Virus record (IMG/VR): IMGVR_UViG_2778261639_000017
Source: a virus
Taxonomy: Duplodnaviria; Heunggongvirae; Uroviricota; Caudoviricetes
Direction: 5' to 3' (one strand)
DNA: 4,524 nucleotides
The translations under genes and the position numbers were made by a program. Shown here in pieces: positions 525-4,524 of the stretch (its first letter is position 1; the number at the start of each line of letters is the position of its first letter). The notes under the pieces are model-generated. The model searched no databases, was not told the origin of the DNA, and worked only from the letters and a program-made list of their open reading frames with translations.

Positions 525-1106
525 ATGAACAACTCATGGTGGCAGGAACTAATGCATTTTTTCCTGCAAGGAATGACACTTAAACAGTTGATTCATATGC
601 TAATCATCCTGATCATATTGATTATTGTTATGCCGGTAAGCGTAAAAGAATGGATAAACCTGCATAATCCAGAAATCCTTCCTCATTACTGGATGTATTA
701 CATCCTGTTGTTTTGCGTTAGCTATGTGCTTAACGGCGTTGTTAATTCCGCTTATCACGCTGTGACTGAAAGAATTGAGGTATCCGCTGCTCAGAAGCGC
801 AAATCTAAAGAAGAAAAATATGTGCAAGATTTGTTTGATTCATTAACTCTTGGAGAAAGAGCGTATTTGGCATTCGCTGTAGCCGCTAATAACCAGCTAC
901 AAACGGAAAAGGGAGCTCATGAATCAATTTCATTGCTCAAAAAAGGACTCCTCGTTCGAAGGCCTCCTGCTGTTGGATATCCTGATACCGACCGTTTCGT
1001 TATCCCTGAAAGCTATAGACATGAGTGCTACATTAGGTTTGCCGGGAAGGCAGACAGCCTTATGGATGAACTTATCGCTCAGGATAAGCATGGCAAAAAC
1101 AAGTAA
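525..1106 (+). CDS. sieB: SieB-like superinfection-exclusion protein, predicted inner-membrane protein (193 aa; alternative start ATG 552 giving 184 aa)
   Basis: Long + strand ORF ending in TAA at 1104-1106. The N-terminal part has two strongly hydrophobic stretches (LIHMLIILIILIIVMPV and YWMYYILLFCVSYVLNGVV) typical of SieB. It lies between ral and N and converges on N, as sieB does in lambda. ATG 552 has the better Shine-Dalgarno (CAGGAA, 4-nt spacer). Confidence 0.6.
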   Translation: MNNSWWQELMHFFLQGMTLKQLIHMLIILIILIIVMPVSVKEWINLHNPEILPHYWMYYILLFCVSYVLNGVVNSAYHAVTERIEVSAAQKRKSKEEKYVQDLFDSLTLGERAYLAFAVAANNQLQTEKGAHESISLLKKGLLVRRPPAVGYPDTDRFVIPESYRHECYIRFAGKADSLMDELIAQDKHGKNK

Positions 1107-1122
1107 TTAGCAAATGAATTTA

Positions 1123-1395
1123 TCATCTCGCCGTCAGTTGTTTTGATTTCCGGTAGCCTGCCGCGTAAAGAGCTACGTTCGGAAGACAAGTTGAACCTTC
1201 ATATTTTCTGGTCAACGTTGTCAGAGTTATCACTTCTGCTCTCATTGCTGGTTTGCGCTTGCATTGCAAGACCACTCGTGAAGGGGTTGGCCTGTGTAGC
1301 TTGTCGGAGCTGATCGCCTCCTGACTTTGCAGATTTGCGCGACGAGCTCTACGGCGAGAAGCTGCGGTGCCTTTAAATTCTGTTTTTCTGGACAT
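1123..1395 (-). CDS. N: Antitermination protein N (90 aa) with an arginine-rich motif and a P22 gene-24-like C-terminus
   Basis: ATG at 1393-1395 is preceded by a strong Shine-Dalgarno (GGGAGGAA, 5-nt spacer). The N-terminal region carries an arginine-rich motif (GTAASRRRARRANLQ). The C-terminal residues ...LPNVALYAAGYRKSKQLTAR closely resemble the P22 N-like protein as I recall it. The 24-codon upstream extension in the ORF track (to 1467) is rejected because it lacks a ribosome-binding site. Confidence 0.75.
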   Translation of the reverse strand: MSRKTEFKGTAASRRRARRANLQSQEAISSDKLHRPTPSRVVLQCKRKPAMRAEVITLTTLTRKYEGSTCLPNVALYAAGYRKSKQLTAR

Positions 1396-1797: not shown

Positions 1798-1828
1798 GGC
1801 AAAGAAAACCCGGCGCTGAGGCCGGGTT
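1798..1828 (-). terminator. Intrinsic terminator of the cI-cassette operon: 8-bp GC-rich stem (AACCCGGC / GCCGGGTT), 6-nt loop, then TTTTCTTT on the minus strand
   Basis: Seen directly. The hairpin at 1807-1828 begins 3 nt after the stop of the 250-aa gene (stop at 1832-1834) and is followed on the minus strand by a T-rich tract (+ 1798-1806). Confidence 0.65.
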
Positions 1829-1831
1829 GTA

Positions 1832-2584
1832 TTATGCTGCAAGTCTCTTAATCCAAGTCTCTCTTTTGGAGAATGGTAGAACTTGGCTTGATTCATGGAA
1901 GAGTAAGGAGAGTTGTTGCATTTGATCACCAATTGCTTCGCTGTCTATAACAACAAATCTGTTGTTATACTCCTCACTTGAAGCTTTAAGATCAATTAGT
2001 TTCCCAAGCAATGAGTAAGCACTATTCCAGCTTCCTCCGTGTTTCACGCTTGATGTAAAAACGTATTTAGGTATGTCGGTTTTTATTGTTACAGGGACGG
2101 TAATTTGATGTCCACTCAAGCCATATACGTTTTCACGAAGAGAAAGTGCGTCTCTAAGCTCTGTGTGATATAGATAATCAATAACCATACTTTCAAACTT
2201 TTCAGCTTGAACTGGCTGATACCAGTCTAACGACAAAGTTGATGCGAGTATACCAGCTCTAATTATGTTCGATGTAATCGCACCGACATCCTTTTCTGTT
2301 GCCCAAGCAATGATTTCTCCTCGAGCATTGAGTTCTGCGCCTTCTTTAAGCAGTAATTGTCGTATCTCATCAAGTCGTTTTTTGGTAAGCGAGATCCCTC
2401 TTGCCTCCATATTCATTAAGGCATCGCATCTGTCACTAACTAAATACCTACCATTGACTTCACGGATAAAGGCACCGACATGCTCTCCATCATCACAGTA
2501 AGTGAATGGACTGATAATTCTCAAGGTCTTGCCTATTGGATGGCATTCGAAACCTAGTTGTGAGATCACTGTTGAGCACATCAT
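1832..2584 (-). CDS. Hypothetical protein, 250 aa, distal gene of the two-gene cassette in the rexAB-equivalent slot; function unknown
   Basis: Long minus-strand ORF. Its ATG (2584..2582) overlaps the TGA stop of the upstream gene in an ATGA arrangement, indicating translational coupling. No transmembrane-like segment, P-loop or other motif I can recognise. Not RexB-like (RexB is a small multi-pass membrane protein). Confidence 0.8.
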   Translation of the reverse strand: MMCSTVISQLGFECHPIGKTLRIISPFTYCDDGEHVGAFIREVNGRYLVSDRCDALMNMEARGISLTKKRLDEIRQLLLKEGAELNARGEIIAWATEKDVGAITSNIIRAGILASTLSLDWYQPVQAEKFESMVIDYLYHTELRDALSLRENVYGLSGHQITVPVTIKTDIPKYVFTSSVKHGGSWNSAYSLLGKLIDLKASSEEYNNRFVVIDSEAIGDQMQQLSLLFHESSQVLPFSKRETWIKRLAA

Positions 2585-3138
2585 ATTCCAAACCCCATTT
2601 GCCCCGACTCATCTTCAAGCGGTAAAGGTACTCTCCCAGAGTAAGTTATGTTCAGATGTTTACAGAAGTAATTCCAATACCCTACCAGGTCATCTGGGTT
2701 TATGTCATCTTCGATTGGAAACGCTATTCTATCACTATAGTATCCAGCTTCTTCATAGTATACATGGTAGTGAGCACCGTAAATGATATCTTGGTACTTC
2801 GGATGATCGACCTTGTAACTATTCGTGTGTTTGTCAAAGTGATAGGTATCTACCGCGAAAACCCTCTTGTTATGATAGAAAGCAATAATATTTATTTTAG
2901 GGTAAGAAATCGGGTCATCAGGTTCTGAATCCTGATCTGGTTTCCATTTCAGTTCAAACTTTAGCCCTTGTATAGGTATACAATCCTCATCCAAGGGGAT
3001 GATATGAGCTTGTAGCCACATATCAGAGCGACTTGGTTTCTGTTTCCATTTAACGCCAGAAAAGTTAACTATTTTTTTACAATAAAGTACTTTATCAACT
3101 TCTACTTGGCTTGGCTGATAATCATCTATTTTTGCCAA
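2581..3138 (-). CDS. Hypothetical protein, 185 aa, proximal gene of the two-gene cassette immediately downstream of cI; function unknown
   Basis: Minus-strand ORF bounded by an in-frame TAA two codons upstream. The only start consistent with full length is TTG at 3138..3136, with AGGGCGG about 6 nt upstream; the next in-frame ATG is at codon 40. The product is acidic and aromatic-rich (many D, E, Y, H) with no hydrophobic segments. It starts 39 bp after the cI stop. Confidence 0.7.
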   Translation of the reverse strand: MAKIDDYQPSQVEVDKVLYCKKIVNFSGVKWKQKPSRSDMWLQAHIIPLDEDCIPIQGLKFELKWKPDQDSEPDDPISYPKINIIAFYHNKRVFAVDTYHFDKHTNSYKVDHPKYQDIIYGAHYHVYYEEAGYYSDRIAFPIEDDINPDDLVGYWNYFCKHLNITYSGRVPLPLEDESGQMGFGI

Positions 3139-3177
3139 TGTTTACCGCCCTGTAAATTGTAGATAAAAGTGGTTTCA

Positions 3178-3831
3178 TCACCCAAACGTCTCTTCAGGCC
3201 ATTGGCTGGCGATAACTTTCCCCACAACGGAACAACTCTCATTGCATGGGATCATTGGGTATTGTGGGTTTAGTGGCTGTAGAAACACCTGACCGCTATC
3301 CCTGATCAGTTTCTTGAAGGTAAATTCATCACCACCAAGTCTGGCTATGCAGAAATCGCCGGGCTCAACAGCTTGCTCAGGGTCAACCAGAATTAACATC
3401 CCGTCAGGAAAGCTGGGTTTGGAACCTGTTGGTGCGGTCATTGAGTTACCTTCAACCTCAAGCCAGAATGCAGAGTCACTGGCTTTTTTGGTTGTGCTTA
3501 CCAATCTCTCCGCATCGCCTTTGGTAAAGGTTCTGAGTTCTGGAGAGAACATCCCAGCCTGAACATGAGAAAAAACAGGGTACTCATATTGTTTTTTAAC
3601 TGGGGCCGATGAGTATTCGCCAACAGGTGAAAATGTCCCGTCGTGGTTGAATGATATGTTATCAATACCAAGGTATTTAAACACCACACCAATATCACTA
3701 AGAGATGGATGACGAGATCCGCGCAACCAGTGTCCAATCCCACCCTGCGTCATACCTAGCTCTTCGGCTAACTTCTCTTGAGTTATGCCGAGCTCTTTCA
3801 TTCTGGATCTAGCCAGTTCATACCATTTCAT
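3178..3831 (-). CDS. cI: CI-type prophage repressor: XRE-family HTH N-terminal domain plus lambda-CI-type S24/LexA-like autocleavage C-terminal domain
   Basis: The C-terminal ~135 residues ([16 protein letters not shown]...SQWPEETFG) match lambda CI as I recall it at all but one position, including the Ala-Gly cleavage site (VQAGMF), the catalytic Ser (GNSMTAP) and Lys (FKKLIRD). The N-terminal domain ([38 protein letters not shown]...) is an unrelated HTH. Start chosen at ATG 3829-3831, which has AAGGA 7 nt upstream. Alternative starts are ATG 3835-3837 and ATG 3871-3873 (which would be leaderless-like, as in lambda PRM); TTG at 3879 is the track's limit. Confidence 0.9.
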
Positions 3832-3873
3832 TTTCATGTCCTTATTATTACGCTTTGTACTGGAACCATCCAT

Positions 3874-3946
3874 GCACAATGTGTATTTTTACTTGTATTC
3901 TTAAAGTACATATTGTATTTTTATTCGTGTTTACTATGGAGGGCAT
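3874..3946. promoter_or_regulatory. Divergent cI/cro control region (OR with PRM and PR). Candidate PR: -35 TTGTAT 3893-3898, -10 TATTTT 3916-3921, operator 12-mer TAAAGTACATAT 3902-3913 in the spacer. cro Shine-Dalgarno GGAGGG at 3938-3943
   Basis: Seen directly: an AT-rich intergenic region between the divergent repressor and cro genes, with recurring TGTA/TACA inverted motifs (for example the 17-mer TGTATTCTTAAAGTACA at 3894-3910, half-sites matching 6 of 8). The 12-mer is shared with the pL region in the same promoter-relative position. Confidence 0.6.
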
Positions 3947-4162
3947 ATGAGCAACCTACGAAAATATCGAGAGTCACTGAATATCTCTCAAACAACACTT
4001 GCTAAGGCAGTTGGATGCACACAGGGAGCTATCGGACATTGGGAATCTGGTCGTCGCTTCCCAGACCTTAAAACATGCCGTGCTCTTGTTGCATGCCTAA
4101 ACAAGTTAGGCGCAAAAGTCAGTCTTGATGACGTGTTCCCGCCGGAACATAAAGCCGCTTAA
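3947..4162 (+). CDS. cro: Cro-like HTH regulator (71 aa)
   Basis: ATG at 3947 is preceded by a strong Shine-Dalgarno (GGAGGG). The product has an XRE-type helix-turn-helix (ISQTTLAKAVGCTQGAIGHWESG). It is divergent from cI across the operator region. Stop TAA at 4160-4162. Confidence 0.85.
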   Translation: MSNLRKYRESLNISQTTLAKAVGCTQGAIGHWESGRRFPDLKTCRALVACLNKLGAKVSLDDVFPPEHKAA

Positions 4163-4218: not shown

Positions 4219-4303
4219 GTTCCAAGATATCTGACCAACTAAGGCCATATGCGTTTCCACGCATACCTTTCAACTAACTATTCACTATTGGAAATCTTAA
4301 GAA

Positions 4304-4450
4304 ATGGAAAGAACAAGTTACAGCAAACTATCACAGCGTGACGTTGATCGCGCAGAAACAGATTTACTTATCAATCTGTCAGCTATTACCCAGCGCGGTC
4401 TGGCAAAGATGATTGGCTGTCATGAATCGAAGATAAGCAGAACGGACTGA
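4304..4450 (+). CDS. cII: CII-like HTH activator, apparently truncated (48 aa) by an in-frame TGA
   Basis: Hand translation gives MERTSYSKLSQRDVDRAETDLLINLSAITQRGLAKMIGCHESKISRTD then stop. The HTH segment aligns with lambda CII (...LLNKIAMLGTEKTAEAVGVDKSQISRWKRDW...) as I recall it. Lambda CII is 97 aa. The frame stays open beyond the TGA to the window edge. Confidence 0.4.
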   Translation: MERTSYSKLSQRDVDRAETDLLINLSAITQRGLAKMIGCHESKISRTD

Positions 4451-4524
4451 ACCGCCCCGGGTTTCCTGGAGAGTGTTTTATCTGTGAACTCAGGCTGCCA
4501 GATCATCGTTTCCGATGGAAGCAT

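Follow-up and report, generated by a model that had tools for sequence, protein, structure and literature searches.

Does the weak, non-ATG start of a small gene lying behind a prophage repressor mark a deliberately linked two-gene module, and if so, what would such a module do for the lysogen? The question is raised by a 4,524-nucleotide stretch of viral DNA (IMG/VR record IMGVR_UViG_2778261639_000017; Caudoviricetes), hereafter the window, in which two adjacent minus-strand genes, here termed gene A (TTG start) and gene B (ATG start), follow a cI-type repressor gene. The window is the immunity region of a lambda-like Escherichia coli prophage and is 99% identical to phages ev207, ev017, PhiR63_2, and PhiR57_1. 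The explanation favored here, with moderate confidence, is that a soluble protein A translated from its TTG codon forms, together with protein B, a linked and low-expressed prophage defense cassette. Its parts differ in strength: translation of the full-length, 185-amino-acid A protein from the TTG at position 3138 is very probable, whereas the defense function, taken alone, is held with about the same moderate confidence as the explanation as a whole.

The start of gene A can be read from the DNA and from its relatives. On the minus strand the region runs ...ACAGGGCGG TAA ACA TTG GCA AAA ATA GAT GAT, with an in-frame TAA (3142-3144) two codons 5' of the TTG (3138-3136). The first in-frame ATG is codon 40, and the codons separating it from the TTG include no further start triplet of the ATG, GTG, or TTG type, only ATA, at codons 4 and 23. 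The proposed ribosome-binding site, AGGGCGG (3145-3151), pairs with the anti-Shine-Dalgarno sequence at approximately -7.8 kcal/mol, compared with approximately -10 kcal/mol for N and cro in the same window. The comparison set comprises 84 related loci, of which viral contigs supplied 79 and reference genomes 5; clustering at 90% protein identity groups them into 15 lineages. Among representatives of these lineages, the ratio of nonsynonymous to synonymous change (pN/pS) is 0.353 for codons 2-39 and 0.358 for the rest of the gene, at synonymous differences of approximately 0.8. In an 18-sequence alignment, M1, A2, K3, D6, P9, Q11, V14, D15, L18, and K22 are invariant, and the N-terminal motif MAKxDDYxPSQxEVD is kept in homologs down to approximately 38% identity; the peptide predicted from the TTG start is (M)AKIDDYQPSQVEVDK. 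The initial annotation had stated that the frame is closed immediately upstream, that AGGGCGG serves as the ribosome-binding site, and that a full-length product needs the TTG, and these statements are borne out by the sequence, by the equal constraint on codons 2-39 with invariant N-terminal residues, and by public annotation. Initiation at the codon-40 ATG, named in that annotation as a finding that would refute the claim, is contradicted by this constraint. The same 558-nucleotide TTG open reading frame is annotated by the Prokaryotic Genome Annotation Pipeline (PGAP; WP_001062368.1) and in three phage records, among them ev207 and PhiR63_2; the start is thus an ordinary one, already correctly annotated and not new to databases.

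Comparative evidence likewise indicates that gene A is a real coding gene rather than a chance reading frame, because it has full-length homologs reaching down to 22% identity (among them proteins of 183-187 amino acids in Klebsiella, Salmonella, Yersinia, Buttiauxella, and Xenorhabdus), a whole-gene pN/pS of approximately 0.35, matching annotations, and a broad spread in E. coli. Of 5426 complete E. coli genomes, 241 carry the A-B segment at 99% identity or above, in every case chromosomally, and Nissle 1917 is one of them. The protein had been described as acidic, devoid of hydrophobic segments, and unusually rich in Tyr, His, Asp, and Glu. Its isoelectric point is indeed 5.3, its grand average of hydropathy is -0.62, and its maximal 19-residue Kyte-Doolittle value is 0.45, and it therefore has no membrane segment. 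The enrichment holds for Asp (10.8%), Tyr (8.6%), and His (4.3%), which stand well above typical E. coli values, but not for Glu (4.9%). High Lys (8.6%) and Ile (9.2%) are in keeping with the 39.6% G+C content of the cassette.

The linkage between the two genes is evident at their junction, which reads GGAATATGATGTGC: the TGA of A (2583-2581) overlaps the ATG of B (2584-2582), and a second ATG follows directly. The overlap of the A stop with a downstream ATG, claimed earlier for this sequence, is preserved in every locus examined, including remote relatives with only 22-32% identity. Its form varies, being TATGATG in the closer group and CTATGA in the remote relatives, while in the group with 38-41% identity the ATG of B lies 10 nucleotides 5' of the A stop TAA (ATGGGAAATGTAA, as the junction is read). 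Gene B always starts with ATG and stands directly after A on the same strand in all 84 loci and in five remote loci. A stop/start overlap is the classic arrangement for translational coupling, and judging from this layout, B is probably translated mainly by ribosomes that have finished A. At the level of transcription, the gap between cI and A holds a single promoter-like match (9 of 12), which is no commoner than in shuffled sequence, and the leader RNA of this gap shows no significant structure (z = -1.0). A terminator-like hairpin begins 4 nucleotides after the B stop, at the position of the lambda terminator after rexB. Because the gap measures only 39 nucleotides, contains no convincing promoter, and is part of a lambda-like arrangement closed by a terminator 4 nucleotides after B, genes A and B are likely transcribed together with cI in lysogens as a cI-A-B operon.

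On this basis, a mechanism can be proposed in which the cassette, sitting in the slot occupied by rexAB in lambda, would be transcribed from the repressor operon in lysogens. Expression would be low and linked, given a non-ATG start and a modest ribosome-binding site on A and a B start codon placed over the A stop. Protein B, which joins DUF1828 to a DUF1829 domain of PD-(D/E)xK fold, would act as a nuclease-type or DNA-binding effector, and the faster-evolving protein A, with its cluster of conserved D, H, N, and HxH residues, would be its partner in the role of a sensor or restraint. The presumed function of the pair would be the defense of the lysogen against other phages. From the sequence we infer that A and B may be a sensor or toxic-effector pair, and they constitute a probable defense module of a known class, namely the accessory modules of prophage repressor operons.

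Two prediction tools point toward defense, as do the occurrence of DUF1829 in the validated system DS-6/HipAD and, as described below, the changing cargo of the slot, the travel of A-B as a unit, and the faster divergence of A. PADLOC returned hits to the window proteins only for the candidate system PDC-M24: B aligns over its full length with the PDC-M24B profile (residues 2-248, profile positions 4-253 of 256; E value 6.1e-10) and, at 1.3e-7, with another PDC-M24B profile, and PDC-M24A matches A weakly and partially at 5e-4, in the conserved C-terminal core (residues 104-163 against positions 79-134 of 148). Within the A family, only 2 of the 15 members reach an E value of 0.001 against the PDC-M24A profile PDLC04536, and one does so against a second profile. 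In addition, DefensePredictor lists both A and B as predicted novel defense genes, with log-odds of 4.9-5.6 (PMC13092281, Tables S5 and S10).

The predicted structures give these proposed roles a more concrete form. The AlphaFold2 model of A has a mean predicted local distance difference test score (pLDDT) of 81.5 and a predicted template modeling score of 0.81, and consists mostly of beta strands with two helices. Foldseek comparison with viral models yielded no match for A at an E value of 0.001 or better, profile searches of A and B against PDB chains gave nothing meaningful, and NCBIfam returned nothing usable for A, only one negligible match. Pfam gave a sub-threshold DUF6978 match (residues 104-164), seen in five of 15 family members. 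Protein A is therefore best described as a soluble protein with an orphan fold, that is, with no known fold matched. Residues K22, W31, R92, D97, N106, G121, H123, H125, F158, and P173 are invariant across the family and H104 nearly so, and the D/H/N/HxH cluster suggests a putative metal or ligand site. A cupin-like reading of the HxH(x)3E pattern was dropped, as E129 is lost in remote relatives and no useful structural match was found, and so was an HNH/His-Me reading, since the secondary structure predicted there consists of strands only. The model of B (pLDDT 82.5) has two domains of mixed helix and strand without a long hydrophobic helix. Its N-terminal domain is DUF1828 by Pfam, with structural matches to YbjN and type III secretion chaperone-like proteins, and the published HHpred assignments for B are DUF1828 (25-114) and DUF1829 (155-241, clan PDDEXK; PMC13092281, Table S5). 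The DUF1829 domain was found to have the PD-(D/E)xK restriction-endonuclease-like alpha/beta fold, and S157, G158, H159, T177, W186, G194, and D198 are invariant in this C-terminal domain. The DUF1828 domain, for its part, carries an acidic patch that is invariant in a 20-sequence alignment (D31-D32-G33-E34-H35, D51, D54, N58, E60, and R62), with D32 and D51 still invariant in remote relatives; it may be a binding surface or a metal site.

The A family is small: no more than 20 clusters emerged when 1.8 billion representative proteins were searched. Beyond E. coli, A-B occurs in prophages of Salmonella, Klebsiella, Yersinia, Providencia, and Xenorhabdus, and the 84 loci place it behind repressors of many immunity types. 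Remote relatives show the same order of an S24 repressor, A, and a DUF1828 gene. Protein A diverges faster than B (38-71% versus 50-83% identity).

The slot itself appears to be mobile. Between nearly identical cI and N genes, three phages hold unrelated cargo, namely a 283-amino-acid hypothetical protein in 2G7b (L088), an NYN-domain protein in 2B8 (L089), and a 173-amino-acid hypothetical protein in Stx2 phage 1717 (L090), and the cI-N slot thus behaves as a cargo hotspot. Four further loci (L080, L084, L085, and L087) encode a cI 99-100% identical to that of the window together with an A protein only 40% and a B protein 51% identical, a pattern indicating that cassette alleles are exchanged behind one immunity type.

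Features of the 4,524-nucleotide window, with positions counted from its first letter
Feature	Position	Strand	Remark
sieB	525-1106	+	
N	1123-1395	-	
Intrinsic-terminator-like hairpin	1799-1828	-	AACCCGGCCTCAGCGCCGGGTT then TTCTTTGCCT; hairpin 1828-1807 plus T-tract tail
Gene B	1832-2584	-	250 amino acids; ATG start
Gene A	2581-3138	-	185 amino acids; TTG start
TTG start codon of gene A	3136-3138	-	GTG at the equivalent codon in the other 14 lineages of the clade
Upstream mini-ORF (predicted)	3122-3178	-	18 codons; coordinates from offsets -40 and +16 relative to the TTG
cI-to-A leader	3139-3177	-	39 nucleotides; contains AGGGCGG and the in-frame TAA
cI-type repressor gene	3178-3873	-	HTH_3 and Peptidase_S24; first gene of the putative cI-A-B operon
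cro	3947-4162	+	
Start of cII	from 4304	+	

Whether the weak start is itself a selected property can be judged from its behavior across relatives. The start codon of A is GTG in 57 of the 84 loci and TTG in the remaining 27, all of the E. coli type, and ATG in none; counted by lineage, 14 of 15 use GTG and one, the E. coli type, uses TTG. The first base of this codon is never A in any of the 15 lineages although synonymous sites are saturated: in fourfold-degenerate control columns with an invariant amino acid, 11 of 11 show three or four bases, with A present in each. Shine-Dalgarno pairing energies of the GTG lineages lie between -2.8 and -5.6 kcal/mol, against -7.8 kcal/mol for the TTG lineage. 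Initiation may lie further 5' in one lineage (L055), where an ATG stands in frame four codons before the A start. Among remote relatives of 22-32% identity, three (L091, L092, and L095) start with ATG after AAGGGG-, AAGGA-, or GGAAGGA-type sites, and L093/L094 start with GTG after GGGAGGA. As far as these sequences indicate, conservation of the weak start is confined to the enterobacterial clade and does not extend to the A family as a whole, and they provide moderate evidence for selection on low initiation of A. The earlier suggestion that a weak start combined with ATGA coupling reflects tuned, low, and linked expression is accordingly upheld for the most part, in that the start is non-ATG in all 84 loci and the overlap is kept throughout, whereas the remote relatives mostly use ATG.

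Several considerations weigh against the proposed cassette. The remote relatives that combine ATG with a better Shine-Dalgarno sequence suggest that the family can work with a stronger start, and since start codons tend to be conserved in any case, the persistence of GTG may in part be due to ordinary constraint rather than tuning. Both co-transcription with cI and translational coupling are deduced from nothing but the gene layout. Protein A has no structural or family match pointing to an activity, and its PADLOC hit, which is weak and covers part of the protein, is to a system that is itself no more than a candidate (PDC-M24). Protein B shows no evident D...(D/E)xK motif, and K173 is lost in remote relatives; its nuclease activity is uncertain because this motif is not recognizable, and a variant active site is possible. 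Finally, the accessions of A and B are absent from the 94 tested units of Table S6 in PMC13092281, no experiment on the A-B pair was found in the literature, and queries with DUF1828, DUF6978, PDC-M24, both accessions, and the PhiR phage names returned nothing relevant in the main texts of publications.

Among the competing explanations, the one that survives best holds that the weak start has no regulatory meaning, GTG being ancestral in the clade and the TTG of E. coli a tolerated drift. This is possible, if clearly short of an even chance. Remote relatives evidently tolerate either ATG (L091, L092, and L095) or GTG (L093/L094), the 15 lineages descend from a common ancestor and cannot be counted as independent cases, and the pairing of the E. 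coli TTG with a stronger Shine-Dalgarno sequence (-7.8 versus approximately -3 kcal/mol) fits neutral compensation as well as tuning. Yet no G-to-A change has occurred at the start in 15 lineages while A is found in every one of the 11 saturated control columns, and a weak Shine-Dalgarno sequence accompanies the weak start in almost every lineage, which favors the selected, low initiation assumed for the defense cassette.

A second alternative concerns how ribosomes reach this start, and supposes that initiation at TTG or GTG is mainly achieved by ribosomes finishing a short upstream frame, that is, by termination-reinitiation. In the window, the ATG of a mini-ORF (short open reading frame) overlaps the cI stop (TGATG), and the 18-codon frame crosses the A start in another frame and stops at a TGA inside codons 5-6 of A. 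ATG-started frames of 3-18 codons that end between -6 and +18 of the A start occur in 14 of 15 lineages, where shuffled leaders would yield 3.5; this enrichment is overstated because the lineages are related, although they include several unrelated-looking leader types. One typical form is AAATGGATATTTAAACA-GTG (M-D-I-stop); another is AGGATGACATCTATCA-GTGGCTAA, with six codons and a stop overlapping codons 2-3. Lambda rexA has AAATGGATTGAATT 5' of its ATG, a similar AAATGGATTGA element, and no such motif was found in the other cargos of the slot (2G7b, 2B8, and Stx2 phage 1717). However, the common ATGGA or AGGATGA may be nothing other than a Shine-Dalgarno-like GGA core at workable spacing, most of the mini-ORFs are not preceded by a good Shine-Dalgarno sequence, the upstream ATG of L055 shares the reading frame of A, and in L039, whose mini-ORF starts further 5', at -35, the shared ATG position reads ACG. 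The element may thus be no more than the GGA core within a weak ribosome-binding site, or it may support termination-reinitiation, and reinitiation as the main route seems rather unlikely. If it were true for the E. coli type, where the frame begins at the cI stop, the output of A and B would follow the translation of cI. A more far-reaching version, in which the mini-ORF would be a conserved part of the cassette and a chain from cI through mini-ORF and A to B would tie the defense module to the repressor level, is more doubtful still; under it, the level of repressor translation in the lysogen would determine how much A, and with it the coupled B, is made.

With regard to function, the pair could instead be an addiction or toxin-antitoxin-like module, or could serve the prophage life cycle (maintenance of lysogeny or control of induction), rather than defend against phages. 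An acidic upstream protein followed by an overlapping nuclease-fold protein does resemble the order of antitoxin then toxin, and the cassette persists in the prophage remnant of the window, which is bounded by insertion sequences (IS). On the other hand, Pfam, NCBIfam, and PADLOC gave only DUF6978, DUF1828, PDC-M24, and one negligible NCBIfam match, A lacks a DNA-binding domain such as antitoxins typically have, near-identical phages differ in the cargo of the slot in the manner of defense hotspots, and the defense predictor is positive for both genes. This alternative is considered improbable, and as many pairs of this kind act in defense, the two readings overlap. Least probable by far is initiation of A at the internal ATG with an untranslated leader before it, for although genes start most often with ATG and rarely with TTG, and the TTG here follows an imperfect Shine-Dalgarno match, codons 2-39 are as constrained as the remainder of A, the MAKxDDYxPSQxEVD motif is conserved, homologs align from residue 1, and M40 lies outside the invariant and nearly invariant columns.

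Some further observations concern the surroundings of the cassette. Both edges of the window are IS DNA, the left 76 bases (1-76) matching IS481-family elements and the right 75 bases (4450-4524) matching the end of the IS3-family element IS1203/IS629, which interrupts cII after codon 48 (open reading frame 4304-4450; intact cII, 297 nucleotides). Because IS DNA bounds both ends and cII is cut, this copy is probably a defective prophage remnant in which cI-A-B has still been kept. The cI start at 3873 was taken from PGAP and the phage annotations, whereas the mechanical list of open reading frames begins cI at TTG 3879. The ATG at 3873 has an essentially nil Shine-Dalgarno match (-0.1 kcal/mol; window positions 3837-3879, minus strand). 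The repressor-maintenance transcript of lambda (from promoter PRM) is leaderless, and by analogy a start without a Shine-Dalgarno sequence would fit a leaderless transcript here. A 410-bp "phage repressor (pr)" clone from Nissle 1917 has been reported to protect MG1655 (PMC5987069). The cloning primer for this insert matches the cro-cII spacer of the window at approximately 4258-4276, and the clone thus appears to represent the cII region rather than cI; as another gene of the region, it is uninformative on A or B.

The pair merits attention as a widespread two-gene unit in the classic rexAB position whose first product combines a conserved His/Asp cluster with the absence of any known fold. 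If the defense function proves true, A-B would represent a new effector-partner pair for prophage-borne immunity and would give a function to DUF1828 and DUF6978-like proteins. For cloning, the native leader and gene order are best kept, as replacement by an ATG or expression of B alone may be toxic or misleading.

Set against known systems, A-B resembles several without coinciding with any. Type II toxin-antitoxin operons similarly comprise two short genes with a 4-nucleotide overlap and an acidic first product, and their low, linked expression is likewise what the layout of A-B suggests; Pfam, NCBIfam, and PADLOC scans revealed neither toxin or antitoxin families nor a DNA-binding domain in A. 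The validated two-gene defense system DS-6/HipAD shares with B the DUF1829 domain (PD-(D/E)xK clan) in DS-6B, with an HHpred probability of only 0.78 (PMC13092281). It differs in that DS-6B joins DUF1829 to DUF3037 whereas B joins it to DUF1828, and in that its partner is a HipA-type kinase, with nothing resembling gene A. PDC-M24 offers the same design as A-B, a small protein followed by one of approximately 255 amino acids encoded by adjacent genes on the same strand, and no mention of it was encountered in the literature searched. The closest parallel in position is lambda rexAB, although homology to RexA or RexB did not turn up in Pfam, PHROG, and PADLOC scans, which gave only DUF6978, DUF1828, phrog_2017, phrog_1960, phrog_5059, and PDC-M24 for A and B. 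RexB is a multi-pass membrane protein (ion channel), whereas B is soluble, with a maximal 19-residue hydropathy of 1.19 (0.45 for A); rexA starts with ATG instead of TTG; and a 15-nucleotide gap separates rexB, which is served by an AGGAG ribosome-binding site of its own, from rexA, in contrast to the overlap of A and B. That lysogens express rexAB from the repressor operon is established, and the same is likely for A-B. In both cases cI, two genes, a terminator, and N succeed one another on one strand, and lambda shares with many gene A lineages the AAATGGAT element 5' of the first gene of the slot.

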